DNA of 15,988 bases, taken from the NCBI GenBank assembly GCA_016839515.1, contig JAEOUE010000295.1:1-15988 (forward strand), written 5' to 3'. The first letter of the stretch is position 1; each line of letters opens with the position of its first letter. Source of the stretch: Candidatus Hodarchaeum mangrovi (GTDB taxonomy: Archaea; Asgardarchaeota; Heimdallarchaeia; Hodarchaeales; Hodarchaeaceae). Both the position numbers and the translations under genes were made by a program. The notes under the pieces are model-generated. The model was not told the origin of the DNA and did no database searches. It worked only from the letters and a program-made list of their open reading frames with translations. Below, piece by piece: positions 3 through 15,988 of this stretch.

Positions 3-1664
3 GTAGTTACAGATAATTTTCCTGAAATATACAACGGAACAGGCGTTAAATCAGTAACAGTTAGATTGACTGTACAAGATGCTCAAGGCCCTTCTAGAAA
101 TGCTCATTTATTGACCCTTATTGAAAGCACTGATTTGTATGATGTATATTATGGAATTATAACAACTGCTACTGATCCTATTGCTTTTCCAAGAGACTAT
201 TTCTCATTTAACCAAACAATTAAATATACAATCAATGTTACAGATAATTTAGGTAACTGGCAAATTAAAGACGGGTTATCACTCCTTAATAAAGATTCAG
301 AAGGGCCTTTTATTAATCGAACAGAAATACTTTATTCCCCAGAGATGGATGGTTTATTAAGTATAGTCATTAATGCTACTGATCAATGGTCAGGAGTGAA
401 AAATGCCTCTATCCGAGTTTATTACCCATTAAATAATCAATGGTCTTCTACTTATTTAATGACAAAATCTGATCTTTTTGTAGGTTATGGATCGCAATAT
501 TACTTCATTAATGAAAGTTTCAATGTGGGTGAAATAATCACATATGAAATTATATTATTTGATAATGGGGGAAATTCTTATCGTGAAATTGCTGATATTG
601 GTGTTGAGGATAAATCAGGACCTCAATTATTATCTGGATCTAAGATTAAATACAGTGAAAATGGACTTGGAGAGTTTTCCCTTATAATTAACACTGGGGA
701 CAATGGTTCAGAAATTACTAGAGCTATTCTTCATTATTCCTATACGATTGGTACTTCTATATTAAGTAGGTCTATCAATCTCACAGAATTGGTTTCCGGA
801 GGTGGGTCAGGGGCCAATATCGAAAATTACAAGTTTCGGAAGACTTTTTCCCAGAAATTCAACATCCCACTTGATTTTACTAGATCAGGATATATAAAAT
901 TTAGTCTAGAACTCTTTGATACCGAGGGTAATTCTCGTTTATATTCGCATGTAGATCTAGAGGACAAAGAGATATTTGATGATAGTTTTACTCAGTTATT
1001 GGATTCTGTTGCGATTGATCTTCTTGGGAATCCAATTTTCTTATTTTTCCTATTCATTTTTGTTGTATCTCTTGCTTATGTTACAATTAAACGGTTACGA
1101 ACTATAAGTGGTTTTGACAAGGAAAAGGTATTAGCAGAGATGACTCGAATTAGTGATAATGAGGTTTGGGAAGAAAATGATAAAATCTCTATTGGATTAT
1201 ATGCTAATTTCTTTGACCAAATAAGAGGTCCAGTTCCAATTATTTGGCACCCCGAAAAAGTAGGGGTATCGGAAAGAGTCCGATTTGCATTAGCTGACCG
1301 ATCTTTCTCAACTTTAGGCTTTGTCTCAAAATATACTGAAACTAAGGATGCAACATTCAAATTTACTTATACAGGAGAAAATTGCACAGTATTTGGATTT
1401 GCTTTTGCTATTGTAAAAGCAGAAGCTCGTGGTGGCCAAGAGAATTTATCAATCTGTTTTATGATTCGTCCTCCCTATGGAAATCTTGAAAACCTTAATA
1501 AATTCCGAGGTGAACTGATAGAACACCTTGAAAAAATCTCTCTGTTGATAAAAAGAGATGAAGATATCAAAATAATTCAAAGAGAAATGCAGAAGACTCG
1601 TGAATTCTTTACTAGAGCTATGATCACCTTTCGAAAGAAATATGGGAGGGAATTTTTAGAGTGA
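3..1664 (+). CDS. 5'-truncated single-pass membrane protein: Ig-like repeat ectodomain, TM helix and cytoplasmic FLCN/SMCR8-like longin (uDENN) domain (receptor A)
   Basis: The frame is open from base 3 (VVTDNFPEIYNGTGVKSVTVRL), upstream of the ORF-track TTG at 66, so the gene starts before the window. Ig-repeat motifs: DSEGP, EDKSGP, TDQWSGV, TDNLGN, FDNGGN, FDTEGN. TM PIFLFFLFIFVVSLAYVTI (~1032-1088) is followed by KRLR. Cytoplasmic motifs: FFDQIRGPVPIIWHP (1209-1253) and EARGG (1422-1436). Confidence 0.8.
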   Translation, partial: VVTDNFPEIYNGTGVKSVTVRLTVQDAQGPSRNAHLLTLIESTDLYDVYYGIITTATDPIAFPRDYFSFNQTIKYTINVTDNLGNWQIKDGLSLLNKDSEGPFINRTEILYSPEMDGLLSIVINATDQWSGVKNASIRVYYPLNNQWSSTYLMTKSDLFVGYGSQYYFINESFNVGEIITYEIILFDNGGNSYREIADIGVEDKSGPQLLSGSKIKYSENGLGEFSLIINTGDNGSEITRAILHYSYTIGTSILSRSINLTELVSGGGSGANIENYKFRKTFSQKFNIPLDFTRSGYIKFSLELFDTEGNSRLYSHVDLEDKEIFDDSFTQLLDSVAIDLLGNPIFLFFLFIFVVSLAYVTIKRLRTISGFDKEKVLAEMTRISDNEVWEENDKISIGLYANFFDQIRGPVPIIWHPEKVGVSERVRFALADRSFSTLGFVSKYTETKDATFKFTYTGENCTVFGFAFAIVKAEARGGQENLSICFMIRPPYGNLENLNKFRGELIEHLEKISLLIKRDEDIKIIQREMQKTREFFTRAMITFRKKYGREFLE

Positions 1665-4600
1665 CGAATATTGGTAGAGGAATAATGACGTATAGATTTA
1701 ATGACATGAATATGGTGTTGCTTATACTTATTTTCATTTCTATTGTTCCAACTCTTAATTTACAATCAAGGACGACGCATACAATCGATTATTATCTCAA
1801 TTCTGAAAACGAATCTATCGTTGTTGATCGTTTGATGAGATCTAATTCCTCAGTTCCTGAATCTTTAGAATATGGACATTTGAAACCAATTGGATTTATC
1901 CCGACATCTCATCAATATTTTACTTCATCTAATCAGTCTACAATTTTTGAGTCCTCCAATTTTAGTGATGATGATCTTATTATTCCTCAAACCAAGATAA
2001 TGGCTCAATTTGATGTAGTTATTGACGAGATTTATCCTAAAGCTATTGAAATTAATTCATCTCAAACAGAGTATCGATTGAATTTCTCAATAGTAGATGG
2101 CCAAGGACTTGATTCAAGCATTATTATAAATTTAACCTTAAGGCGCTCAGATAATCCCCTAGAAAATTATTTAATTACTACTTGGTACAATTTCTGGTAC
2201 AAGGGAGAACCCAGTTTTGATTATTCCTTGTTTTTCACTCTTAACAATTCGATTATTTCATCTCTCTCTTTCGCTTTATATTATTTCGAAATTCACACTT
2301 TAGTTTTAACTGAAGAAAGTGTTTCATCAATTAATTTACCAGTAAAAGATCTCCAAGTTTCTATTTTAAGCTTGGTTCCAATAGAGTTTAATAACAAATT
2401 TGATTATAACCAGACATTTGAGATCCAAATTGAGGTTAAGGAGTTTAATGGGATTTCATATAATCCTGTAACTTTTCTACCAAGGCTTCTTGATTCTAAT
2501 TCAAGATTGATAAATCCCAATGTTACAATTTTATCTTCGACAGACCAAACAAGGGTGGAATTGTACTTTTTCTCCTTTATTACAAATTCTTCGGCTGAAG
2601 GGACATATACTTTTAATACTACACTTCTTCCTGATGATGCTCGCCAATTTGAAGAAGCAAATCATCAATTGTCAGTCGTTGTAACTTCAAATGATGGGAT
2701 TCAAGCATTTAATTTGGAACTAATACAAGCCAAAAGTACTGTACTATTAGTTCGATTAAAGAAAATTTATATTGAATCAGAATCTTTTGATTGGGATATA
2801 TTAACTAATAATGGAAAGGAACATAAAATTTTCAGGATAAATATTAATTCCTCATTTTTAGTGACCTATGAAATATACGAACAAGAATCAGGAATTATAG
2901 ATGACACTGCTGGAGATATAATTAGTTTTCAAGATCCGAATAAACCTAAAGATCCATTTGCTATTCTTCAGAATGTATCATCAGCAGATGGATCTGATTC
3001 AATAGATCTTACTTCCAACCGAATTTCTCTTCCTGAAGGGTATCCTTTGTTTTTATATGTAAGAGGTCACCGCACTTCACAAGAAGATGAATTATCCAAT
3101 ATTACGATCTATTGGGATTCAATTGATTATAATCTTAACTATTATGATGATAAAGGTGAATCAGGATCAAAGGGATTAGGGTTAGATATTGGAGCGACTT
3201 GGGCTTTAAATTTATCACTTATTTATGTTTCTGACTCATCTCCTGCATATAGTTCGTATATCCAATATAGATATCCTAGTGAAAGTCCTACTTGGGTTGA
3301 CTTGATTGATGGGATAGGGAATGACGAATTAGATGGTCAATTTTCACTAAATAGAACAGAAAATAATCCTATTGTTCTTTTATTGGAAATTCGAGTTGTT
3401 AATGGATCGTTAAGAAGTGTAAGAGAAACATATTTTGTTGATGCATCTTATAATACTGATTTATTTTCATTGGTTGTGACTTGGACTTATTTGAAGATAG
3501 ACCTCTCCTCTACAGAGGAAGATGGTCGATTAGGTATAGGTAAATCTGCTAACATAAACATTACAGTTAAATGGGCACATAATGAATCTTTACCCTTTAG
3601 TGGATATATAAGTGCAAGAGACTGGAAAAATTCTTTTTCCTTAAAACAAATAGTAAATGGATTTGGTATTTGGATTGGTGTTACTAATAATAATCCAGGG
3701 TTATATCAGTACCGAATCGATACAATAGTAGATGACCCATTATTTGGGGTTACCAAATTTTTTAATATATCCAACGGTGAGGATGTATCTATTAGTCTTA
3801 TTTGGGATTCTATCGAGTTTACATTTTCTAATACCTATAATAGTTCTTTAGATCCCTCCTTACAGATATGGGAAGCCTCTCTAGAGTATACTTGGAGTTT
3901 TTTTGCCAATATTAATACTAATGCTACTTTATATATTTATGGTTTTCATACTTATGATAATACTCCATTCCAAGGAGTTGCTGAATTAGCTTCAACTTCT
4001 CCTGATGGAGATATTATTGTTCTTTATTTTAATTCTAAGGGAATAGCAATTTGGACGGGTGATTATACAGAATTTAATATACCTATTGAGTTTTTCATAA
4101 ATTCAATAATTAATTCAGCCGAAAATGATTGGGAAATATACGAACCAGGAAATCCCCATTTTGTAGAAATCGTTTGGGATAGACTGGTGGTTACATTATC
4201 TGCAAATCGGGCGTATTCTCATGGTACATGGGCTGATATTTACATTAGCTATTCTTATGCTATAAGTCCTAAATCTGTAAATCCTTCAGACGTAACATAT
4301 GATTTTACCTTATATAATGGAACACTGACAAATGTTTCTCTAACTCATTTTCGTGACTTTAGTTTAAGCCCTATAGAGAGAACTTATTATCTAACAAATT
4401 TCTTTGAGGCAACTACAGGACTGTTAGGTGCAGATATTCAATATCGATGGACAGGATATGAACCAAGGCTAGGGAATCTAACTATTTATTGGATTGATGA
4501 TCGTCAATCACGAATTATTGACCGTTATATTCGAGATTTAGGAAATGGAACTATTCTCATTATAATTCATCTCACTGATAATTCAGAAGATTGGATTGGA

Positions 4601-6211
4601 ACTGGTATTCAATCCGTTTATTTACGTGATGAAAGAGAAAATGTCCTCGACCAATTTCCCACCCCAGCAGAAATAACTGAATTTTCTCCTGGAATATATC
4701 AATGTATTTTTCGGTATATTTTCAATCAATCTGATCAATCTAATGGGTTTAGATTTTCATTTAATGAAACTTTAAGATTTTCTTTAAATATAACAGAAAA
4801 TGAAATCCCTAGTTTTCCTGAAGACTTGGGTAAATCTCGTACTTATCTATCACGAGTTTTTACTGTTCAAGCCAAGTATGATTTCATTCTTCCCAAATTC
4901 ATTGACCAAGGTGGGATGATTATTAATATTACTTATCTTACAAATGGAACTGATGGGTATATTCTTGTAAAGACAATGGTTCAAGATGAATTTTGGTCTG
5001 GATTGGGAGATAATTCCGTCATGTTATTAATTACTACCTTAGATGATGATTTAGTTTTTGAAGGAGTTATGAATCCAGCACAATTAATTCAACCGAACTT
5101 AAGGAGGTCTATCCTTAAATTCCAAACACTTGTGTATTTGGATGTTCTCAAGACTTATATTTTTACGGTCGTCGCTACCGATATTTCAGGTAATAAGAAT
5201 AGCTATCAGATTGAATTAGTAGTTGAAGATCGTGTGGCTCCCCGTGTAATTGAATTTAATAGTGAAAAAACGGACGATCGGCAATTACGTGTGAACGTCA
5301 CACTTGAGGAAAATGGTCTTGGAATTGACTTTATTCGTATCAGGATTCGTGGATATAGTATTTGGTACGATTTACTACCCGTTGGAGGAAGCGGGGCTGA
5401 CGAAACAGCCCAACGTTTTATCTATTCAGGCTTAATTCCTCTTATTCTTGATCTCAATAATATTATCGGATTTAAAGTGGAATTCGATGTCTGGACCATG
5501 GATCGTTTAGGCAATCAAAAAGAATTTTTGCTAGAAAATTACCAATTTCTGCTTGAAACGATATTCCTTGAGCCTTTTGTGTTAGGTTCTCTTGTATTTC
5601 TATTAGTAATCGGCATTATAATTGGGATCAGAGTAACTTCTCGCCATGAAGGCTATGATATGCAACGAATCTTCAAGGAAGGTGAACAAATCTCAAGAGA
5701 GGATATTTTGATTCAGATGGATGAATTTGCTTTGGGAGTTACAATTAATTTCTTTGATCAAATTCAAGGTCCTGTTCCTGTTATCTGGGAGCCTCCACTT
5801 CTAGAGGATCAACAACAAGTCATGCTTGATCTTTCGGACAAATCATTCTCAACTCTTGAGTTTGTAGGCACTGATGAATATGAACGAAGTGGAACATTTG
5901 ATTTCTCAACGGGAAGTTATGAATGTACGGCTCTTGGTTATTCATTTGCAATTGAAAACCCAGAGGCTAGAGGAGGCAAAGAAAATCTCACGATCGTTTT
6001 ATTACTTCGTAGAGAATGGGGAGAAAACCTACTAGTATTTCAAGACGAGCTAGTTGAAAAACTAAGACAAATCCGTATTTTGGTTGAAAATAGGAAACCA
6101 GCGTCTGAAATCGAGAGGACATCGCGCGAATTACGTGAAATGGTTTCTCGGTTAATGATTGCATTTAATAATTTGTATTTAAAACAAGAAAAAAGTAATG
6201 AAAAAAGATAG
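1661..6211 (+). CDS. Large single-pass surface protein: signal peptide, beta-sandwich repeats, TM helix and cytoplasmic FLCN/SMCR8-like longin (uDENN) domain (receptor B)
   Basis: 1516-aa ORF. The GTG start overlaps the upstream stop (GTGA); an alternative ATG at 1685 has GAGG just upstream. N-terminal hydrophobic stretch MVLLILIFISIV and many N-x-S/T sequons. TM PFVLGSLVFLLVIGIIIGI (~5573-5629), then FFDQIQGPVPVIWEP (from 5750) and EARGG (5963-5977). The cytoplasmic domain aligns without gaps to receptor A from the juxtamembrane linker through the EARGG region. Confidence 0.82.
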   Translation: MTNIGRGIMTYRFNDMNMVLLILIFISIVPTLNLQSRTTHTIDYYLNSENESIVVDRLMRSNSSVPESLEYGHLKPIGFIPTSHQYFTSSNQSTIFESSNFSDDDLIIPQTKIMAQFDVVIDEIYPKAIEINSSQTEYRLNFSIVDGQGLDSSIIINLTLRRSDNPLENYLITTWYNFWYKGEPSFDYSLFFTLNNSIISSLSFALYYFEIHTLVLTEESVSSINLPVKDLQVSILSLVPIEFNNKFDYNQTFEIQIEVKEFNGISYNPVTFLPRLLDSNSRLINPNVTILSSTDQTRVELYFFSFITNSSAEGTYTFNTTLLPDDARQFEEANHQLSVVVTSNDGIQAFNLELIQAKSTVLLVRLKKIYIESESFDWDILTNNGKEHKIFRININSSFLVTYEIYEQESGIIDDTAGDIISFQDPNKPKDPFAILQNVSSADGSDSIDLTSNRISLPEGYPLFLYVRGHRTSQEDELSNITIYWDSIDYNLNYYDDKGESGSKGLGLDIGATWALNLSLIYVSDSSPAYSSYIQYRYPSESPTWVDLIDGIGNDELDGQFSLNRTENNPIVLLLEIRVVNGSLRSVRETYFVDASYNTDLFSLVVTWTYLKIDLSSTEEDGRLGIGKSANINITVKWAHNESLPFSGYISARDWKNSFSLKQIVNGFGIWIGVTNNNPGLYQYRIDTIVDDPLFGVTKFFNISNGEDVSISLIWDSIEFTFSNTYNSSLDPSLQIWEASLEYTWSFFANINTNATLYIYGFHTYDNTPFQGVAELASTSPDGDIIVLYFNSKGIAIWTGDYTEFNIPIEFFINSIINSAENDWEIYEPGNPHFVEIVWDRLVVTLSANRAYSHGTWADIYISYSYAISPKSVNPSDVTYDFTLYNGTLTNVSLTHFRDFSLSPIERTYYLTNFFEATTGLLGADIQYRWTGYEPRLGNLTIYWIDDRQSRIIDRYIRDLGNGTILIIIHLTDNSEDWIGTGIQSVYLRDERENVLDQFPTPAEITEFSPGIYQCIFRYIFNQSDQSNGFRFSFNETLRFSLNITENEIPSFPEDLGKSRTYLSRVFTVQAKYDFILPKFIDQGGMIINITYLTNGTDGYILVKTMVQDEFWSGLGDNSVMLLITTLDDDLVFEGVMNPAQLIQPNLRRSILKFQTLVYLDVLKTYIFTVVATDISGNKNSYQIELVVEDRVAPRVIEFNSEKTDDRQLRVNVTLEENGLGIDFIRIRIRGYSIWYDLLPVGGSGADETAQRFIYSGLIPLILDLNNIIGFKVEFDVWTMDRLGNQKEFLLENYQFLLETIFLEPFVLGSLVFLLVIGIIIGIRVTSRHEGYDMQRIFKEGEQISREDILIQMDEFALGVTINFFDQIQGPVPVIWEPPLLEDQQQVMLDLSDKSFSTLEFVGTDEYERSGTFDFSTGSYECTALGYSFAIENPEARGGKENLTIVLLLRREWGENLLVFQDELVEKLRQIRILVENRKPASEIERTSRELREMVSRLMIAFNNLYLKQEKSNEKR
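3101..4500 (+). repeat. Protein-level tandem beta-sandwich repeats in receptor B, delimited by [IV]-x-W-[DT]-like motifs
   Basis: ITIYWDSI (W at 3113), LVVTWTYL (3482), ISLIWDSI (3803), VEIVWDRL (4175), LTIYWIDD (4490). Spacings are 123, 107, 124 and 105 aa. Confidence 0.6.
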
Positions 6212-6224
6212 AGGTTGAAGAAAA

Positions 6225-9176
6225 ATGAAAAAATATGTAAGTAAAATGACCAAGATATTGTTAATTCTTTTTATTTTACAATATGCCTTAATTTATGATT
6301 TATTTCCAGATTTAAGTAAGTCTTCCTCCTCTATTTTTGCAGATCCTCTTAGATCACAAGGATTTCCTGTTTACGAGTCTAGTTCTTCTTGTTCTGACTT
6401 TCCTGATGTGATTGAAATTGATACAACAAAATCTCTTCAACAGACTACTTATGATATCTTTAATCTTACAGGAGTAAAAAATCCATCTCTAGTTCAATTT
6501 ACTGAAAACATTTGGACTGATGTCTTAGGTACTGATAGTTTAGCTCTTCAAAATAGCGAGATTTTCCAAACTGGACTGATAGTAACGAATTCATCAGTTG
6601 GAAGTCAATTAGAGGAGGAAGTCAATAATTCATTATTTGTAAGAATTGGAAATACTGGTTATGGGTTACCTGTTCCTGAGTCAGGATTCAATCCTGATTT
6701 AAATGAGAACGAAGGTTGGAGTATTTCTTCAGGTCTCTCTGCTGGTTGGAAAATACCTTTCACAATTAGTAGCGAATATGAAGTGGTTAATATAAGTTTT
6801 AATTGGCGTTTTGACGCTATAGACGGAGCTTTTGATTATGATCGTTACGAATATTCCCCAGGAGTCTTTCTCGATGAGAATCCAGATTTTCAGGAGGTAA
6901 GAGCACGTATTTCCCATATCAATCCAGTAAATTCGTTCTGGTTGGAAAATGATCGATCTCCTTCTAATCCTAATGGCACAATTTATTATCGTCGTGGGCC
7001 TGTTGTAGATGGAGATGAAGTGTGGTATCAATTTAATTACTTATTTCAGGTGTCTCCTGATGATTATACATTAGAGCTAGGGGCTTATCTTAATACGAGA
7101 GAGTTTGAACTTGAATATTTCGATGTTTGGTTTGATGAAATCTATATTCAAGGGATAGATAATCTCACTGATAATCTAGCTCCTGTACCAAAGGAGTCGG
7201 GATTGAATAGAACAGCAGATATTACTCAATATGAATTTTTTGCTACTTTTAGAGAAGGATTATGGGAAACACCAGTAAAGAATGTCACAGTTTTTTACAA
7301 CACATCATCTGGTCTGAATACTACCGCCTATAATTCGACTTTAAGTCTTGTTCAGACCTCCTATATAGATAATGCAGGTTATAATAACTCCTATTGGAAT
7401 TTTTCAACTATTTTTCAATTCAATGATTCTATTAGTTATTATTATCTTACATACGATTATCAAGGAAATAATTATGTAAGTCAGAATTATTACTCGGTTA
7501 TTAATGATACAGTTGCTCCAAAGATTACAAGCTCACTTAGTATTACAAATCCCTCATTTATTCGGCAATTAGGGAATGGAAGTTCATTAATCTGTGTCAC
7601 AGTCTATGATTGGGGAAATAATACTGAAGAGGTTAAACTCTGGTATCGGATTGGCACAGGAGACCTTCAGTCGCAGTTATTCCTATTTAATGGTACTCAT
7701 TATATTACAAAAGTCACCTTCGGATTTCTCCAAACAATCTATTTTAATATAACTTTGAAAGATGGTGCTGGTAATTCTAACACCTATTCCGGGTACTCCA
7801 CGAAGAACACTATTGATTCCATCGCACCCACTATAATTTCTAATAGCTTAGTGATATATCCCAGCAAAATTACAGAGAACAAAAACCATGTAAATATATC
7901 TGCTTTTGATCCGTTTGGAGAAATAAGAAGAGTGTTTGTCGAATTTTGGGATCTTCAGGGAGTTCTAAAATTCAATGTAACATTAACTTCCCGTGGAGTA
8001 TTAAATCAGTATTTCTTAAGTCAACCATTAGATTTACCCTATAATCAGTCGTATATTGCTCGTGCTGTAGTTCGTGATCAAAGTGGCTTGAATGCTACTG
8101 CAAATATCACCTATACAGCATTGGATAGCGTGGTACCCCAGTTAGATATTCAAGAAAGTGAATATTTCGAACCTGGAAAGCTAAAGGTGTTCCTTATATC
8201 AAGTGATACTGGTAGTGGCTTAAAATCTTTAGAATATGCTATTTACACACCTACTGGTTGGTCTTCAAGTAAAAGCATTGAATTAACAGGAGCTCGTTAT
8301 TCATTTACCATTCATTCGGAGTTTATAGGGAATGAACGAATCGAGATTCGAATTAGTGCTATTGATAATGCAGGTAATGAAAAAATACTTACGAAAGTTT
8401 ATACAACCAGTTTATTCTTTTTGACCCCCTTTGGATTATTGTTTACTGATGGTTTCATAACCTTTGTGTTTGTTTTTGGCTTTACCATGGTTAAAATTAT
8501 TCAAGCCCGACGAGTTCGTGTTGTACGCCGTAAACGGTTTGATGTAGCCCTCAGTCGGAGTGAACGCTTAGCCTATCTCGGAGAAGAAGCTATCTTTGGA
8601 TTTATTGCTGCTTATGGTCAGAGAGAAGGGAGTTCTAGTGTTTTACTTTGGGAACCCCGTTTAATAGGTGGTTTCTATCAATATCTGAAGGAACTTGTAG
8701 AGAAAGCACACTCACGAGTTGATTTTATCATGCGAATGAAACCAAAGGAAATGGTATCGTATATTGATTTTAATATTGAGGATGTAGCTTGTACTGCTAT
8801 TCTTTTTGCCTATCCTGCTCCTACGTTACCACAACAATGGTTATCAACAATTAGTTTAGACCAAGTGCCTTCTGGACCTGGACAGGGGATTTTACTTATA
8901 ATGTTACTAATGAGAGAACAATGGAACACTGTATCTCAAAGTTTTCAAGAGGAAATTACTGAAGGAGTTCTAGATGTTAAAAATCGGATTCTTGCAGGAG
9001 AAACTAAAGAATCAATACTTGAACAAGCTAGAAACTTTCGTAGATTTATTTCGGAGACCATTGAAGTCCTTGACGAGATAGAAGTTGAATCAGAGGATTT
9101 TGCTGATTCGATTATGGATGGTTTTGAGAATACGTTATTAGAGCAGGATTCGGAGAAGAAAGAAGATAGAAGATGA
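6225..9176 (+). CDS. Single-pass surface protein: signal peptide, CBM-like jelly-roll, Ig-like repeats, TM helix, divergent longin-like domain and acidic tail (receptor C)
   Basis: 983-aa ORF with GAGGT upstream of the ATG and a signal-like N-terminus MKKYVSKMTKILLILFILQYALI. Repeat motifs: DNLAP, DTVAP, DSIAP, DSVVP and DYQGN, DGAGN, DQSGL, DNAGN. TM at ~8412-8500 is followed by RRVRVVRRKR. The tail shares WEP, DF...CTA and LLMREQW with receptor B (WEP, DF...CTA, LLLRREW). Confidence 0.75.
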   Translation: MKKYVSKMTKILLILFILQYALIYDLFPDLSKSSSSIFADPLRSQGFPVYESSSSCSDFPDVIEIDTTKSLQQTTYDIFNLTGVKNPSLVQFTENIWTDVLGTDSLALQNSEIFQTGLIVTNSSVGSQLEEEVNNSLFVRIGNTGYGLPVPESGFNPDLNENEGWSISSGLSAGWKIPFTISSEYEVVNISFNWRFDAIDGAFDYDRYEYSPGVFLDENPDFQEVRARISHINPVNSFWLENDRSPSNPNGTIYYRRGPVVDGDEVWYQFNYLFQVSPDDYTLELGAYLNTREFELEYFDVWFDEIYIQGIDNLTDNLAPVPKESGLNRTADITQYEFFATFREGLWETPVKNVTVFYNTSSGLNTTAYNSTLSLVQTSYIDNAGYNNSYWNFSTIFQFNDSISYYYLTYDYQGNNYVSQNYYSVINDTVAPKITSSLSITNPSFIRQLGNGSSLICVTVYDWGNNTEEVKLWYRIGTGDLQSQLFLFNGTHYITKVTFGFLQTIYFNITLKDGAGNSNTYSGYSTKNTIDSIAPTIISNSLVIYPSKITENKNHVNISAFDPFGEIRRVFVEFWDLQGVLKFNVTLTSRGVLNQYFLSQPLDLPYNQSYIARAVVRDQSGLNATANITYTALDSVVPQLDIQESEYFEPGKLKVFLISSDTGSGLKSLEYAIYTPTGWSSSKSIELTGARYSFTIHSEFIGNERIEIRISAIDNAGNEKILTKVYTTSLFFLTPFGLLFTDGFITFVFVFGFTMVKIIQARRVRVVRRKRFDVALSRSERLAYLGEEAIFGFIAAYGQREGSSSVLLWEPRLIGGFYQYLKELVEKAHSRVDFIMRMKPKEMVSYIDFNIEDVACTAILFAYPAPTLPQQWLSTISLDQVPSGPGQGILLIMLLMREQWNTVSQSFQEEITEGVLDVKNRILAGETKESILEQARNFRRFISETIEVLDEIEVESEDFADSIMDGFENTLLEQDSEKKEDRR

Positions 9177-9202
9177 TTTTATTTCTTCTTTTCTATTTAT
9201 TA
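9177..9202 (+). terminator. T-rich tract after receptor C, possible archaeal oligo-T terminator
   Basis: ttttatttcttcttttctatttatt lies immediately after the TGA. The background is AT-rich, so this is weak. Confidence 0.3.
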
Positions 9203-9227
9203 ATTCATTAGTGGATCACTTAACAAG

Positions 9228-9263
9228 TATAAAAATGCGTTTGATCAAGCAAGAAGAGAGGTA
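9228..9263 (+). promoter_or_regulatory. Candidate TATA box and Shine-Dalgarno for the 78-aa gene
   Basis: TATAAAAA at 9228-9235, about 35 nt before the ATG at 9270, and GAGGT ending at 9263. Confidence 0.35.
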
Positions 9264-9269
9264 CTAGTC

Positions 9270-9506
9270 ATGACTAAATATATGCGATTAAGAACGGAAC
9301 CATGTACTATTTGTAATAAAAAATATGCTCTTGGAATCCCAAGTGGGCAACTAGAACCAGATATTACTGGATTAGATGTCTTTCTTGATCTTCATGGTTT
9401 GGATGAAGAACTTCCACATGCTAGAATTCTCTATATTGATGGTAAGGGCTTCATTAGAACTATTTCAACAATTAAGAAGTTTACAAAAATTCTACGTGAA
9501 GAATAA
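9270..9506 (+). CDS. Small putative zinc-binding protein (CxxC...H...H-x4-YID-x2-G-x2-R)
   Basis: 78-aa ORF with an SD-like GAGGT. Contains CTIC, DLHG and PHARILYIDGKGFIR, resembling a small domain I recall as recurrent in Asgard proteomes (not verified). Confidence 0.7.
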   Translation: MTKYMRLRTEPCTICNKKYALGIPSGQLEPDITGLDVFLDLHGLDEELPHARILYIDGKGFIRTISTIKKFTKILREE

Positions 9507-9533
9507 TTAAATAAAGCTTGGTTATCCTTTGTT

Positions 9534-9977
9534 CTACATAATGTCTAAATGGATACGTTGCGCTGTTCCTCGTGTTCCTTTGCGTGAACAGGTGACACTA
9601 AAAAGTGGAATATTGAAATCCACGGCTAATAAAGTAGCATCGTCAAGATTTTTCGCTACAAGAATGTCCAGTATCGCTCCATCGGTATGACGAAATATTC
9701 TTAAATATACATCCTCAATTTGATAAGACCCTGTCTGATCCCATCCCTTTTCTACGAGTAGTAAAGTTGGCCACAATTCTCCTTTTTTAAACCATTCCTT
9801 ACGCTTTTCTACTGGAGTTTTTATATCTTTATCGGCAAGATTGGGAAAGAAATAGCGTTTATCATCCTCAATGGTATCTTCTAGCATTCTTATATGGGGA
9901 TTTTGTCGCGCTATCCAACCAAAAGTTCTAAACTGCAAGATAATCCAGTCCGTAATTCTACATTCAAGTTTAGGCAA
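9534..9977 (-). CDS. Hypothetical soluble protein
   Basis: 147-aa ORF with a TTG start and protein-like composition that fills the gap between neighbours. The frame stays open upstream to 10076 with no in-frame ATG, so the start is uncertain. No family recognised. Confidence 0.65.
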   Translation of the reverse strand: MPKLECRITDWIILQFRTFGWIARQNPHIRMLEDTIEDDKRYFFPNLADKDIKTPVEKRKEWFKKGELWPTLLLVEKGWDQTGSYQIEDVYLRIFRHTDGAILDILVAKNLDDATLLAVDFNIPLFSVTCSRKGTRGTAQRIHLDIM

Positions 9978-10122
9978 AATGCTAAAGGAGCTATAAGACC
10001 TTTCGCTGAATTTGTATAGTTTTACTTCTAACGCATGACGATTAAAAAAAACTTTTGCTTGAGAACTACTAAAATTCTAGTAAAAATTATTTAGCTATTG
10101 ATATTTCAGGCTTTATCAAAAC

Positions 10123-10641
10123 TCACATTTCTGGATTTAGAGCTGTTTCAGAGGGTTCGTGAAGATCTTTTCTTTTCTGAGGTATTTCTGAGATAATTTT
10201 TACAATATTACGACCCCATACCATGAAAAAAGCTAGTTCGAGTAAGAACATTATTCCTTGCAGGATTATGCTCTCAGAGAAGACCTCAAGTATATATGTA
10301 AGGGCAAAAAGTCCAAAAACATAAACCAAATCAGTAGAAGCTAATTTTCCAGGTGTAAAGGTAATTTCATTTGAGATCCATCTCCAAATTTCCCAATAAG
10401 CAATAATTCCTCCTAATAGGGATCCAAGGACTGCACCGACATAGATTAATGCTGGCCAAATCACAGGTAAGCTAGAAAAACTTGGTTCTTGTCTTGCTAA
10501 GTAATCAAATATACCAATTATGAAGAATACTATTATAAAACTCGAAATACATGTAAAAATAATTGCCAATATAGGACTTATTGGAAGGGAATTTTTCTGG
10601 GGATTTTTTTCCTTTGGAGAGTCAGATTTATCTAAAGACAT
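10123..10641 (-). CDS. Hypothetical membrane protein, about 4 TM helices
   Basis: Four hydrophobic segments. I moved the start from 10695 to the ATG at 10641 (MSLDKSD, 172 aa) because it has GGTGA about 8 nt upstream and avoids overlapping lysS. Probably co-transcribed with lysS (17-bp gap). Confidence 0.75.
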   Translation of the reverse strand: MSLDKSDSPKEKNPQKNSLPISPILAIIFTCISSFIIVFFIIGIFDYLARQEPSFSSLPVIWPALIYVGAVLGSLLGGIIAYWEIWRWISNEITFTPGKLASTDLVYVFGLFALTYILEVFSESIILQGIMFLLELAFFMVWGRNIVKIISEIPQKRKDLHEPSETALNPEM

Positions 10642-10658
10642 TGGGATTTCACCAAATA

Positions 10659-12314
10659 CTACTTTTTTACCGTTTGCAATCGATTTATAACCCATTCACG
10701 ATCAAGAGCAACAATAAATGGGGCAAATCGTGGGCCTTGGGGAGTACCAAGGAAGATTTGATATAGTGCTTGGAAAAAAAGGTTCATTTTCTTTTTGCTT
10801 AATCCAGTTTCTTCGCGTAGAGAAATCATACAGTTCTTAATTTCTTCTTCATTCCAAGGTATTGTCTCAAGTTTTTCAGCCATCTGAAGAATTATTTTCT
10901 GGATTTCATTATCTAGACCTATAATTACTTCATTTGGAATATCTTTCGGGATATTGATTCTTAAATAGGTTGGAGCATATTGAGAATTAACCCATGATCG
11001 TGTATGATTTAATCTTTCTTGAATATGTTCTATAACATCTTTTGAAGGGTTATTTACAAGCATTCCAGTTCCCTGTAGTTTATTGATAGCGATTTCTAAC
11101 CCAGAATTGTCTGATGGTATTAATTGGGTCAATATTAATGCATGGGAATAATCTAACTGAAATCCACGATATGGTGGTACTTGATTATAAAAAACAATCT
11201 CATAACTACGCTTAATAGCAGCTAGTTCCGCATTATCATCAAATGGCTCTAAATCGAAATATATTCGCTGTGCACGATCGTATTCTGCTACATAATTAGG
11301 TACTTTATCTAAACCCAGTATTATTCGGCGTTTTGGCGGTGTTTTTAGATATAAATATTTGAGCACTTCTGGTTCTGTATATTTTAACCAGGTTGTGGGA
11401 GTAAAACCTATAAATCCTGAGCTTGTCATATCGCCAAAGTCTTTTTTATCTTCTGAATAGCCCACCCATTCGTTCCAAAAGCCAAAAGGCCCACGTCGCT
11501 TGAGAACAGTTTCTAAAACCTCTATGCAGCTGTCTCGTGATCCACCTGGTGTAGCATGATCTTTTCCATATGGTTCAAAATGAACATTGAGGGTATACCA
11601 GATTGCTAGCCATTCTAGTCTCCATGTAAGTTTTCCTAGACTAATATCAGACCAGTCTTCTGTATTACATTCTTCGCAATGATACTTGACCTTGTAGGTT
11701 TTAAGATCGACATCAAGTGCTTTTGTTGTTCCAATTCGGTTACAACGAGTACATAAAGGATTAATAGGTATCCAATCTTCGGGAAAGGGGTTTTCTTGCC
11801 GATATTTGTTTAATATTTTTCTAACCTGATTTTTCTTTTTAATAAGCGAGATAACCGTTTTCTTCATATCTTCTCGTTGATACAATTCATGTGTTCTAAT
11901 AATTTGGATATCTTTTCCGAATTTTGGCATGGGAATTCCGAATTCTTTCCAAAAAAAGTCCACCCAAGACTTTTTTGATTCTGATGGATCTGGAACATCA
12001 ATAAGTCGCCAATTAATATATTCCTTCGCTTTTTCAGGATCTTTAAAGGCATTAAGCTGTGCTTCTTTTCCTTTCCATGGATCTGAAGTATAAAGAATTA
12101 AATAATGAGTTGCTTTATAACCACGTGCCTGAAGTTCAGTTGTCACAGCATTTGTTAAAACGATTTCACCCCTTAGACGACCGACGTGTTGTTTCCCTGA
12201 GATAGATATACCACAATTGCAATTAAATTTGGTGACATCAGGCCAATTATTAATTAAATCTGTTGTTAGTTGATCTATCCAATGTTGGGAATATTCTTTT
12301 GGACTTTCGGTCAT
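10659..12314 (-). CDS. lysS: Lysine--tRNA ligase, class I (LysRS1)
   Basis: N-terminal HWIDQL; HIGH-like GISISGKQHVGRL; CTRC and CEEC zinc knuckles; GKLTWRLEW; FEPYGKDH..PGGS; KMSKS-like DMTSS; C-terminal FQALYQIFLG..QGPR anticodon-binding domain. Confidence 0.96.
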   Translation of the reverse strand: MTESPKEYSQHWIDQLTTDLINNWPDVTKFNCNCGISISGKQHVGRLRGEIVLTNAVTTELQARGYKATHYLILYTSDPWKGKEAQLNAFKDPEKAKEYINWRLIDVPDPSESKKSWVDFFWKEFGIPMPKFGKDIQIIRTHELYQREDMKKTVISLIKKKNQVRKILNKYRQENPFPEDWIPINPLCTRCNRIGTTKALDVDLKTYKVKYHCEECNTEDWSDISLGKLTWRLEWLAIWYTLNVHFEPYGKDHATPGGSRDSCIEVLETVLKRRGPFGFWNEWVGYSEDKKDFGDMTSSGFIGFTPTTWLKYTEPEVLKYLYLKTPPKRRIILGLDKVPNYVAEYDRAQRIYFDLEPFDDNAELAAIKRSYEIVFYNQVPPYRGFQLDYSHALILTQLIPSDNSGLEIAINKLQGTGMLVNNPSKDVIEHIQERLNHTRSWVNSQYAPTYLRINIPKDIPNEVIIGLDNEIQKIILQMAEKLETIPWNEEEIKNCMISLREETGLSKKKMNLFFQALYQIFLGTPQGPRFAPFIVALDREWVINRLQTVKK

Positions 12315-12544
12315 TTTCTCTCGCCAGAATGTTTCTTATCTAATAACAGTCTCAATGAAAAAGGGTTAAAAAAACCATTTTTTCCTATCTGATAGAGCTA
12401 TTTCAAAAAAGAGGAAATATTAATTGAATAATAGCTTTAAGTGTTAAGAAGGAATTATTTCTATATAAATTTATTAGACTTAAGTACGAGACTAAATTGT
12501 ATATTTAGATTACTGTTCATTTCAAGATAGGTGAAAAATAAGAA
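12315..12544. promoter_or_regulatory. Divergent promoter region between lysS and the GlmU-like gene
   Basis: 230-bp AT-rich gap between divergent starts with TATA-like tracts (ctatataaat at 12461-12470). AGGTGA SD at 12529-12534 precedes the ATG at 12545. Confidence 0.5.
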
Positions 12545-13771
12545 ATGAAGGCATTAATTCTGGCAGGGGGTAGTGGAAAGGAAATGTTACCAATTTCAAA
12601 GTACTGTCCCAAGACTTTTTTGTCTTTACATGGCAAATTTCTTGTGGAATATGTGATTGATGGTCTAAGGGAAGCTGGGTTTGAAGAATTCGTGGTTGTA
12701 GTGGGGCATCTAGGAGAAAAAGTCGATATATTATTGGAAAAATATCAAGGAAAGAATATTATTCTTGATATTGTCAATCAAGAGGAAAAAAAGGGTATTG
12801 AAGGGGCAATCTTAGCTGGAAGCGACCATTTTTCCAAAACTGAACCATTTATATTGGCTTATGGGGATATCATTGCTCCTTCTAAATTTTATCAACATTT
12901 AATGAATTCCTACATCAATACAGCTGCTGATGGTGCAATTGCAGTCACCTTAGTAGGCAAATCCTTTGAATTCGGAATAGCTAGTCTTGATGACAGAGGT
13001 TTTATTACCAAGATTCTTCCTGAGACTTCAACGAATGGTGATGAGGCGAATTATATTTTTGCTGGAGCTTCCATTCTTCCAGGTGAATTCTTTCATGTTC
13101 TACAAGACGAAAAGAAATTAACTTCAGCTTTAGGACGATTACTCAAAGAGCAGCGGCGTATTTGTGCTTCTGTTTGGTTGAATGAATGGATAGATGTTGG
13201 GTATGGATGGGATCTTCTAGAAGCAAATAAAGACGTTTTCAAAAACATTGAATACTCACGTATTCATAAATCAGCTAAGATTTCTCCTTCTGCACATATT
13301 TCAGGATTAATATTCATTGAAAAGAATGTTACAATTGATCACAATGCCGAGATTGTTGGACCCTGTTTTATTGGAGAAAATGCATATATTGGTACCAATA
13401 GTTTAATAAGAAGTTTTTCTTGTATTGAAAAGAACTGTACAATAGGATTCTCAGTCGAGGTAAAAAATTCCGTTATTCAACCAAATGTAAAGATTGGTCG
13501 TTTATCTTATATTGGTGATAGTGTAATCGGAGAAGGAGCTAACATTGGAGCTGGAGTTACTACAATAAACTACATAAAAGGTCTTTCTCCCGATATACAC
13601 CCAATGATTATCAAAGGACGCGAGTATGACAAACTAGGGGCCATAATAGGTCCTAGAGTAGATCTTGGATCGAATACTGTTATTCTTCCCACTATTAAAA
13701 TTAATCATGACGAAATTATCCCTCCAGGTTCTGTAGTCAAATCCGATAAAATGAAAAAAAGAGAAGATTAG
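12545..13771 (+). CDS. GlmU-like sugar-phosphate nucleotidyltransferase with left-handed beta-helix domain; catalytic motifs appear degenerate
   Basis: MKALILAGGSG...P...PK, AYGD and WIDVG..WDLLEAN; hexapeptide repeats (IVGPCFIGENAYIG, LSYIGDSVIGEGANIGAG, KLGAIIG) as in archaeal bifunctional GlmU. Confidence 0.88.
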   Translation: MKALILAGGSGKEMLPISKYCPKTFLSLHGKFLVEYVIDGLREAGFEEFVVVVGHLGEKVDILLEKYQGKNIILDIVNQEEKKGIEGAILAGSDHFSKTEPFILAYGDIIAPSKFYQHLMNSYINTAADGAIAVTLVGKSFEFGIASLDDRGFITKILPETSTNGDEANYIFAGASILPGEFFHVLQDEKKLTSALGRLLKEQRRICASVWLNEWIDVGYGWDLLEANKDVFKNIEYSRIHKSAKISPSAHISGLIFIEKNVTIDHNAEIVGPCFIGENAYIGTNSLIRSFSCIEKNCTIGFSVEVKNSVIQPNVKIGRLSYIGDSVIGEGANIGAGVTTINYIKGLSPDIHPMIIKGREYDKLGAIIGPRVDLGSNTVILPTIKINHDEIIPPGSVVKSDKMKKRED

Positions 13772-14466
13772 AATTCCAGACGTTTATCTGGGACATAGGA
13801 AAGAATTCTTCTGATCTGATCTTCTTTTTTGTTTATTCGGAAAACATTTGAGATTCGATAAATACGATCGCCTGTTTCTGGTTTAATAAAGAGATCACCA
13901 CTTAAGAAAAGCATTTTCTCAAAGATATCTGGGTTGGCTTTTTCGATGTGAGCATGTTGTGCGTTTCCAAATCGTTCTTCGTCTCCTAGAATTCCTCTGT
14001 GATGATAAATTTCTGTAGGGGAAATCAACCAATAGTCTATGCGACTATAGATATACATTATAATTAAATGAGCAGCTATTAGCAAAAAGAAGAATAAATA
14101 AAATTCTTGAGATACTGTGATATTAGGCCAGCTAAGACCAAACTTCAATTCAGGAAATTGAGTTATTAAGAGAATATAAACCAATACAAAGATTATAACA
14201 CCAAAAGCTATAAGAGCTGTCTTTCCCACTCCGAAATCAAAAGCTACTATGATAAAATTAAATGCAAATACTGCAAAAAAGAACGTCCCAAGAATTACTT
14301 TTGTGTCTGTACCAAAAAGGTCTGGTAAAAAAGCTTGGATAATGAACGAAAGTAAGGCAATTATCATACTAGGATAGAAAAAGAGCGTTTCAGGATAAGA
14401 ACGAACAATAGTATATTCCTTTTCTGGTTTTTTTATTTCTTGTGTTTTAATCGCATTCATTGACAT
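13768..14466 (-). CDS. Membrane protein (about 4 TM) with C-terminal bacterial PH-like (bPH_2/DUF304-like) domain
   Basis: Four hydrophobic helices, then YWLISPTEIYHHRGILG...IFEKMLFLSGDLFI...RISNV...IRRIL, which fits the bPH_2 pattern. GGAG upstream of the start. 4-bp convergent overlap with the GlmU-like gene. Confidence 0.7.
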   Translation of the reverse strand: MSMNAIKTQEIKKPEKEYTIVRSYPETLFFYPSMIIALLSFIIQAFLPDLFGTDTKVILGTFFFAVFAFNFIIVAFDFGVGKTALIAFGVIIFVLVYILLITQFPELKFGLSWPNITVSQEFYLFFFLLIAAHLIIMYIYSRIDYWLISPTEIYHHRGILGDEERFGNAQHAHIEKANPDIFEKMLFLSGDLFIKPETGDRIYRISNVFRINKKEDQIRRILSYVPDKRLEF

Positions 14467-14584
14467 TTTTTTCTTGACTCCAAAGAGATATATGTATTTA
14501 AATGATCAACTAAATTATATATATTTTTGTATATTCTTGAATTAAAAAAGGTTCTTTCTAAAATAATCAGACCTAACTTGTTCC

Positions 14585-15604
14585 TCAGAAGACATCTTTC
14601 AAGCCATTTGTAGTAATAGCAAATACAACTTCATTTTCAGGTAACATTGGACTATCGATAATTCGTGCAATACGACGTTCCCCTTTGGATTTTCGAAGGT
14701 AGATTCTAGTATGAGTTGAATGAGCTAAGATATGTCCTCCCACAGGTGTAGTAGGATCTCCAAAAAAAGTATCAGGAGCAGTTTGTACCTGATTAGTCAA
14801 GATAATGGCAAGATTATATATTTCAGCAAGTCTTAAAAGAGAATGAAGATGCTGATTTAGCTTTTGTTGGCGTGATGCTAAGGTTTCTCGTCCCACGTAT
14901 TCTGCACGAAAATGTGTGATTAATGAGTCAATTATCAATAATTTTACATTTCTAAGAGGGGCTTCTCTCATGATTCGTTCTGTTAAAATCATTTGATGGT
15001 CTGAGTTATATGCTCTGCCATGTAGTATGTGTTTTAAGATTGATTTAATGTTTAGATCATCTGAATATTGATTTGCCATCGAAACTATTCGCTCTGGACG
15101 AAAAGAGCCTTCTGTATCAATATATATACATGTAATAGCTTCTTTTCCATCCTTAGTGATACCCCCCCTTTCACATGGAAGATGGCTAGTTACACACAAC
15201 TGGTGCGCAATCTGTGTTTTACCCGTTCCATATTCCCCATAAACTTCTGTAACACTTCCAGTTTCAATTCCTCCTCCTAAAAGATCATCTAGGGCATCAA
15301 CACCAGTAGAAAGACGCATCATACTTCTTCTTGATTCAAGAACTTTATCTGCAGATTTAAAATCAATACCAAGAGATTTTTGAGCCATCTCAATCAGTTT
15401 GAGTGCCATATTCTCTTGGAAGTTACCACAAGATGTTAATTCTCGGATACTTGCACTAGCTACTGCTTCTATAGTTGTAAATCCTCCGTCAAAGAGCTTT
15501 TTAGAAAGTAAGGGATTAATATTTGATAGGAGAGGAAGACGATCGGGATCACTATATGATAGATCTTTTTCTAATTGAGAAGGAATAATATCGGGTTTGT
15601 GCAA
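14585..15604 (-). CDS. radA: DNA repair and recombination protein RadA (or a close paralog)
   Basis: N-terminal HhH-like domain; polymerization motif FKSA; LSTG...LDDLLGGGIETG; Walker A GEYGTGKT; YIDTEGSFRPER; Walker B LLIIDS; FRAEYVGRETLASRQQKL; TNQV; GGHILAH; DSP. TTG start. Confidence 0.9.
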   Translation of the reverse strand: MHKPDIIPSQLEKDLSYSDPDRLPLLSNINPLLSKKLFDGGFTTIEAVASASIRELTSCGNFQENMALKLIEMAQKSLGIDFKSADKVLESRRSMMRLSTGVDALDDLLGGGIETGSVTEVYGEYGTGKTQIAHQLCVTSHLPCERGGITKDGKEAITCIYIDTEGSFRPERIVSMANQYSDDLNIKSILKHILHGRAYNSDHQMILTERIMREAPLRNVKLLIIDSLITHFRAEYVGRETLASRQQKLNQHLHSLLRLAEIYNLAIILTNQVQTAPDTFFGDPTTPVGGHILAHSTHTRIYLRKSKGERRIARIIDSPMLPENEVVFAITTNGLKDVF

Positions 15605-15988
15605 TCGAAGATCTTTCCAAGAGTTCTTTAATAATAACTCGAATATCCAATAATAAAGACCTGTTCAAGACAGTTCATTATTAAACTTATAAGATATTAG
15701 ATTTTGAATTACTATTTCATTAGGGAACAGTATTACAACAAGGATCTAAAATTAGGAAGAGAGAATAAACAGGTATCACACTACCCTATAATGCCTTTTT
15801 TAGAATAAAAATAGTACCTGATTTTATAAAAATGAATATAGTCGTTTATTACTCTAAGTTAGGTTAAATGGGAATGACTCAGCCTATGTGTAATTTCACT
15901 TTCAGAGATCTCTTCTATTACAATAAAATTGTTTTAAACGGATTTTTAGTTCTTAATTTTTTAATTTTGGGAAAAAAATTAACTATTA

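Follow-up and report, generated by a model that had tools for sequence, protein, structure and literature searches.

A candidate non-catalytic longin subunit on a surface receptor of a three-gene cluster in Hodarchaeales

The window analyzed here, 15,988 nucleotides of contig JAEOUE010000295.1 from Candidatus Hodarchaeum mangrovi (Hodarchaeales, Asgard archaea), carries three head-to-tail genes on the + strand, A, B, and C. In each product, a large ectodomain is joined, through a single hydrophobic span and the basic residues after it, to a C-terminal tail of about 170-215 residues. The cytoplasmic tail of C (8530-9176; residues 769-983 of 983) is predicted to adopt a longin fold, and has neither the GP motif nor the arginine found in the tails of A and B. 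We consider it somewhat probable that C is a non-catalytic longin subunit, a pseudo-GTPase-activating protein (pseudo-GAP), which would pair with the tail of B, of A, or of both. A sequence-only reading of this DNA had proposed that C could be a non-catalytic partner shared by the other two receptors, whose heterodimerization with it would assemble the active GAP. That proposal is upheld in part, as the tail is longin-like, neither GP nor Arg occurs at the aligned positions in any of 40 C-type tails, and the gene is tied to A and B, while the pairing itself is what we infer from these observations.

Sequence and fold of the C tail

Gene C (6225..9176; all features of the window given below lie on the + strand) encodes 983 amino acids, with an N-terminal hydrophobic leader and an immunoglobulin-like, sequon-rich ectodomain; its orthologs carry the precomputed domain assignments PF12245/PF24893. 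The membrane span LFFLTPFGLLFTDGFITFVFVFGFTMVKII (8412..8501, residues 730-759), located by sequence and hydropathy, is the only one in the protein. The basic stretch RRVRVVRRKR comes after it and assigns the tail to the cytoplasmic side. Within the tail, the longin core covers 8586..9077 (protein residues 788-951; topology b-b-a-b-b-b-a-a).

The relationship of tail C to the other tails can be detected by sequence comparison. In BLASTP, tail B matched tail C at 42.7 bits with 40/182 identities (22%) and an E value of 8e-10. Tail A matched tail C weakly (E 0.014 over 57 amino acids), and the match between tails A and B was strong (39% identity, E 4e-46). A canonical-only hidden Markov model, built solely from the seven canonical tails of the source genome, recognized tail C at 35.4 bits (E 1.8e-10). 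By its profile match, its position at the extreme C-terminus, and the single span of the large surface protein that bears it, tail C fits the Hodarchaeales receptor-longin tail family. Searches of Pfam returned nothing for A, B, or C at E <= 0.1, and the ESM Atlas gave no usable match for tail C.

The canonical signature of tails A and B has three parts: FFDQxxGP where strand 2 begins, LSDRSFS within helix 1, and ARGG in the loop between strands 4 and 5, the positions of GP and ARGG (strand 2 opening and strand 4-strand 5 loop) being read from the model of tail B. All three motifs are replaced in tail C. Opposite FFDQIRGP of A and FFDQIQGP of B stands AYGQREGS (8610..8633), so that the GP motif is lost. 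At the place of the Arg-finger loop, where A and B read (K/N)(A/P)EARGG(Q/K)E, tail C has the longer loop PAPTLPQQWLSTISLDQVPSGPGQG (8814..8888), 25 conserved residues with a short helix and without a conserved Arg. Both replacements had been noticed from the sequence alone and are confirmed by the alignment, as is the retention of other landmarks: WEP and DF...CTA are kept in tail C, and its LLMREQW faces LLLRREW. The third loss, LSD(K/R)SFS to LVEKAHS, is an addition to the earlier description.

To place these losses in the family, 189 tail segments were aligned to the family profile, comprising representatives (187 matches at E <= 0.001 from a search of 1.84 billion proteins), the C-type orthologs, and the window's own tails. 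Both GP and Arg were missing at the aligned columns in 40/40 C-type rows; tail C itself reads EGS at the GP place. Among the 126 other family rows in which both sites were aligned, 118 had both marks and four had neither, with GP alone in one and Arg alone in three. Loss of one mark thus mostly goes with loss of the other, as would suit a single functional site. Five Arg-less tails lie outside the C-type clade (P0159, P0160, P0167, P0169, and P0174), four of them also without GP. A quick tree places them within or next to the A clade and so points to independent losses. A further open reading frame (ORF) of 250 amino acids in the source genome (G000:C41:580-1329, - strand) weakly matched positions 1-100 of the tail profile (E ~0.001) and may be a soluble distant relative.

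The loop that replaces the Arg-finger loop is itself conserved among C-type tails, with the consensus AYPxxTLPQQWLSxLTLDQVPxGxGQG. The two residues before its invariant Gln vary (AG in 14, GG in 11, RG in 5, PG in 3, and PR, PK, and TH in 2 each of 39 tails), and no near-invariant Arg or Lys was present in the loop across the 39 C tails.

The AlphaFold2 model of tail C, calculated from an alignment of 50 sequences, had a predicted local distance difference test score (pLDDT) of 84.1 and a predicted template modeling score (pTM) of 0.75. DSSP assigned to it the elements E22-30, E36-42, H44-70, E75-83, E86-96, E121-129, H130-155, and H160-213. The model thus shows the five-stranded antiparallel sheet in the order b1-b2-a1-b3-b4-b5-a2-a3 which defines the longin fold. 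Tail B was modeled with the same order of elements (pLDDT 94.5, pTM 0.89).

When VIA-align was run on Foldseek candidates, tail C was best matched by 8yqg_B (Z 14.9; root-mean-square deviation [rmsd] 2.9, 138 residues aligned), followed by the Lst4 longin 4zy8_A (12.6), 7o2w_A (12.5), the FLCN chains 8dhb_J and 6nzd_H (both 12.3), and 6ulg_N (12.1). Longins of DENND1, GATOR1, SNARE, and adaptor proteins came lower, and the top rows, from Z 14.9 to about 9, were all longins; the best structural matches span C9orf72-SMCR8, FLCN, and FNIP2 (Z 12-13). For tail B, VIA-align gave 8yqg_B (Z 14.8) and FLCN 8dhb_J (13.5), and the Foldseek order was the Lokiarchaeal longin 8yqg, FLCN 8dhb_J, FLCN-FNIP2 6ulg, and the SEA/GATOR1 complexes. 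The earlier description of tail C as a degenerate longin is therefore half right. The model (pLDDT 84) and the longins at the top of the VIA-align ranking bear out the longin part, but "degenerate" does not suit a domain in which both the tail and the replacement loop are conserved.

Conservation, origin, and gene linkage

A C-type tail was found in 39 proteins including that of the window, at 58-72% identity; most are 930-1080 residues long and a few are fragments. Over 37 orthologs, the tail is 59-76% identical (median 62.5%) and the ectodomain 34-55% (median 39.0%), which makes the tail the best-conserved part of the protein. The C-type tail is under purifying selection. Its C-terminus is formed by an acidic extension that is specific to the C-type, DSIMDGFENTLLE (9075..9173), with the consensus DDIMGDFExEFLD. 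The core of this motif, [IV][ML]x[DS]F[EDG], occurs in 37 of the 39 C tails, is doubled in four (P0018, P0025, P0027, and P0029), appears in the window's C as the variant IMDGFEN, and was not found in canonical tails. Among the C-type orthologs (P0009-P0046), this acidic-hydrophobic end resembles a short linear binding motif.

C-type tails have a single origin. In a careful tree of 41 tails they form one clade (support 100/100); its stem measures 2.18 changes per column, and no branch inside it exceeds 0.23. A and B are sisters in the same tree (90/82); the midpoint root falls on the long C stem and leaves the position of C relative to A and B undecided. A quick tree of 138 rows agrees with it. 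A conserved tail and short inner branches on a long stem are the pattern of changed function and not of decay. C-type tails are present in a single copy per genome, in 17 of the 83 genomes of the class, and in only one of its 18 genera.

The neighbors of C are as constant as its tail. Gene A (3..1664) lacks its 5' part because the contig stops there; the portion present encodes ectodomain, a single membrane span, and a tail (1164..1661) of canonical longin type with FFDQIRGP and EARGG, and hence with both GP and Arg. In four orthologs of A (G019:C193, G014:C10, G018:C52, and G001:C87) the open frames run to 8,821 to 10,431 amino acids, so A is a giant surface protein. Gene B (1661..6211; 1516 amino acids) starts with GTG in a 4-nt overlap with the stop of A and has the same layout of ectodomain, one membrane span, and canonical longin tail (5705..6208). 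The ATG of C lies 13 nt past the stop codon of B in the window. Across loci it lies between 5 nt before the end of the B coding frame and 16 nt after the last B codon, and in most loci (window 6196-6240; L009-L024) it is preceded by a GGAGG/GGTGG-like stretch inside the last codons of B.

Public sequences hold 17 loci that encode a C-type tail. Six were not evaluable for the upstream gene, since C is cut by the contig end in five and has a 100-N scaffold gap at its 5' end in one (L011/G009, CP070665.1). The sequence-only reading had named C-type genes occurring independently of A and B as one of the findings that would speak against it. No such gene was seen: a canonical-tail, B-type gene lies directly upstream of C on the same strand in 11/11 evaluable loci, and the order A-B-C is present in 7/7 loci with at least 7.6 kb of upstream DNA.

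Presence and absence across the order tell much the same. Of 24 genomes, 17 have the C tail, 16 the B ortholog, 15 both, and 12 the A ortholog, and six have none of the three (completeness 63-89% by the tool's figures for those listed). Three apparent exceptions did not hold. G010, which seemed to have B without C, contains the C ectodomain (36% identity to residues 1-760), and its tail lies in a 100-N scaffold gap. L011/G009 appeared as C without B because of the gap already mentioned, and in G021, which appeared discordant for B and C, C is cut by the contig end. The two "single-contig" genomes of this genus to which G010:C1 and L011 (CP070665.1) belong are scaffolds with 100-N gaps in or beside A-B-C, and such gaps can mimic gene loss. 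In four genomes (G005, G006, G008, and G023) no ortholog of A, B, or C was found, yet one or two other canonical receptor tails are present; C thus belongs with the A-B-C cluster and does not serve the whole family as a general partner.

The close junction of B and C could also be taken as a read-through fusion, as a single in-frame stop parts the two frames in 7/11 public loci. This was rejected, since B and C are in different frames in the other four loci and in the window, and every copy of C has its own ATG and leader.

Downstream of C, the window (9534-15604) contains two small ORFs (147 and 190 amino acids, the second membrane-like), a class I lysyl-tRNA synthetase (LysRS), a nucleotidyl-transferase with hexapeptide repeats, a 232-amino-acid ORF, and RadA. 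The same gene order is found downstream of C in L011. LysRS and RadA of the window are of archaeal type.

The non-catalytic partner and its rivals

C is the third gene of a conserved A-B-C operon of single-pass surface receptors in one Hodarchaeales genus, the products of which each end cytoplasmically in a longin domain of the folliculin/SMCR8 class. Tail C has kept the fold while exchanging three motifs for an equally conserved signature of its own and adding an acidic C-terminal motif. On the reading we favor, it would be made together with B, and with A, and would act with them at the membrane, where its longin domain may pair with a catalytic longin, as FNIP and NPRL3 do with FLCN and NPRL2, and may shape or regulate the access of a small GTPase. 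Because of its fold, its motif loss, its conservation, and its gene linkage, a non-catalytic, FNIP/NPRL3-like role of C is well supported. Tail C has probably lost catalysis, A or B would presumably have GAP activity, and their GTPase target would be Rag-like or Arf-like. Whether A, B, and C make up one heteromeric surface receptor, the longin tails of which combine into a catalytic/non-catalytic GAP module that serves a Rag- or Arf-like GTPase, is a further step, which we regard as possible but doubtful.

Several results weigh against a silent partner. Since A and B each carry GP and Arg, the system does not strictly need a silent third member. In five of the 39 C tails, an Arg stands one column past the canonical Arg column. 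Sequence searches give no statistical link between the receptor-tail family and FLCN: phmmer with tail B against PDB sequences returned no match at E <= 10, and the family profile against the PDB returned helical chance matches only (best E 0.18). Ranked by Foldseek E value, the list for tail C is topped by LOV/PAS proteins, and longins lead only by template modeling score (TM-score) or by VIA-align. A LOV/PAS identity was nevertheless rejected, as these matches are driven by long helices and reach a TM-score of only ~0.3 (TMq) at rmsd 9-30; 8yqg_B has the best TM-score (0.52/0.69). FLCN, FNIP2, and Lst4 score within 1 Z of one another, which means that structure cannot separate catalytic from non-catalytic relatives. 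Tail C stops 32 residues past the longin core, and its model consists of the longin and a long last helix only, with no DENN or other C-terminal dimerization domain, unlike FNIP and NPRL3. FNIP has a C-terminal DENN domain and NPRL3 a C-terminal domain, and both are also used in pairing.

The genomic setting adds a further such point, as no GTPase gene lies beside A-B-C, either downstream in the window or upstream of A in the two relatives G018 and G001. In these relatives, ThiN, a kinase-like gene, and a solute-binding protein precede A. In two relatives, the nearest Rag-like genes share a contig with A-B-C at a distance of ~28-38 kb. Other canonical receptors do adjoin genes of the Gtr1/RagA family, which supports a GTPase-linked role for the family. 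Examples come from two contigs of the source genome (G000; loci L027 and L028). On C112, a canonical receptor (390-6806) is followed by a RagA-like gene (6893-7843), and on C28, a canonical receptor (3276-12566) by Rag-like genes at 12572-14827 (-) and 14986-15897 (+). Receptor/Gtr1-RagA pairings of both types recur in relatives. Beyond its RagA-like gene, C112 continues with a 125-amino-acid ORF, an 893-amino-acid HEAT/TPR protein, and a second, convergent receptor.

Alternatively, C may act alone, as a GTPase-binding but non-hydrolyzing tail (an anchor, an effector-like sensor, or a decoy) which competes with A and B for the same GTPase. A longin fold that is kept and highly conserved after the catalytic marks are gone would suit such a role, and a conserved replacement for the Arg loop is what would be expected of a binding surface. 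A and B, moreover, already have full motif sets. The tight coupling of B and C and their invariant order are compatible with lone action but fit one assembly better, and no GTPase partner was identified near the cluster. We therefore hold a lone GTPase-binder to be unlikely.

It is less probable still that tail C is mainly an adaptor. The longin would then be a scaffold, and the acidic motif together with the conserved loop would bring in a cytosolic factor that has nothing to do with GTPase control. The spread of the acidic motif over nearly all C tails, its doubling in some, and its absence from canonical tails agree with this idea. However, the window has only the variant form, so the exact motif is not indispensable; the acidic stretch continues the last helix in the AlphaFold2 model (pLDDT 66-79); and no candidate binder is known.

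Some GAPs, such as RapGAP, use Asn or Gln in place of Arg. Tail C could accordingly still be a GAP by way of other catalytic residues, for example the Gln of the conserved LPQQW or GQG stretches, and tail residue Q119 and the LPQ stretch indeed vary little or not at all among C tails. This is nonetheless highly improbable, given that GP is lost along with Arg throughout the C-type, that the SDRSFS motif of helix 1 is lost too, and that no positive evidence speaks for it. Finally, the loss of all three family motifs could be read as the mark of a decaying, functionless remnant, a view with next to nothing left to it in the face of a tail better conserved than the ectodomain, open frames that are intact in 16/17 genomes (with a TGA in one), and short branches within the C clade after its long stem.

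Parallels with known longin systems

The comparison with eukaryotic longins gives the non-catalytic partner its closest models. According to PMC12290439, the GP motif stands beside an arginine finger in FLCN, NPRL2, SMCR8, and C9orf72 and is absent from FNIP2, NPRL3, and other longins; GP is placed in the catalytic pocket, and GP and arginine finger occur together in some Asgard longins. With their GP and ARGG, tails A and B and 118/126 family tails resemble these Asgard longins of the FLCN/SMCR8 type, while C is without both. A Monosiga FLCN row in the supplement of PMC12290439 (HFCEQHGP ... DPDARGG) is, to the eye, very like FFDQxHGP ... NPEARGG of the family. Like tail C, FNIP1/2 (Lst4 in yeast) and NPRL3 are longins without the GP and arginine finger that their paired catalytic paralog keeps (PMC12290439).

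The pattern of these non-catalytic partners, a longin without GP and Arg together with a catalytic-type paralog, is also that of C, which shares with FNIP and NPRL3 the trait of being encoded together with catalytic-type paralogs. Tail C differs from them in being carried by a single-pass surface protein, where FNIP and NPRL3 are soluble. As the C-type arose within one archaeal genus, any likeness is one of parallel evolution and not of descent.

The best structural match of both tails, 8yqg, is a Roadblock-Longin protein from Lokiarchaeota. It shares only 6-13% sequence identity with them, and it is soluble and fused to a Roadblock domain. The title of the entry calls it dimeric, which means that archaeal longins of such a shape can pair. 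A more distant parallel is MglB of Myxococcus, a GAP-type protein of the Roadblock/longin superfamily which reportedly works with a related or accessory non-catalytic Roadblock partner. In contrast to tail C, MglB is a soluble bacterial protein with the Roadblock and not the longin topology, and the GTPase on which it acts is MglA. No paper on receptor-borne longin tails or on arginine-less Asgard longins was found in the literature searched, which did not cover the Asgard sequence set of PMC12290439.

To our knowledge, in all three longin complexes that act in eukaryotes as GAPs on Rag and Arf GTPases (FLCN-FNIP, GATOR1, and C9orf72-SMCR8), a catalytic longin is joined by another that is silent or differently equipped. 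The A-B-C cluster offers a compact archaeal parallel, with two paralogs that have GP and Arg and one that has neither, a fixed order, tight coupling of B and C, and tails of 170-215 residues which fold confidently in prediction. Since the C-type is limited to one genus, it informs on how easily such pairs evolve and not directly on the ancestry of FNIP or NPRL3. If A, B, and C do form a heteromeric receptor, a division of labor of the FLCN-FNIP type would have been invented twice, the second time tethered to the membrane, in the archaeal group closest to eukaryotes, and the tails would provide a small, bacterially expressible model of a silent longin subunit that controls a catalytic one. Should the tails pair, they would make it simple to approach what the silent subunit does and how receptors signal to GTPases in the closest archaeal relatives of eukaryotes.

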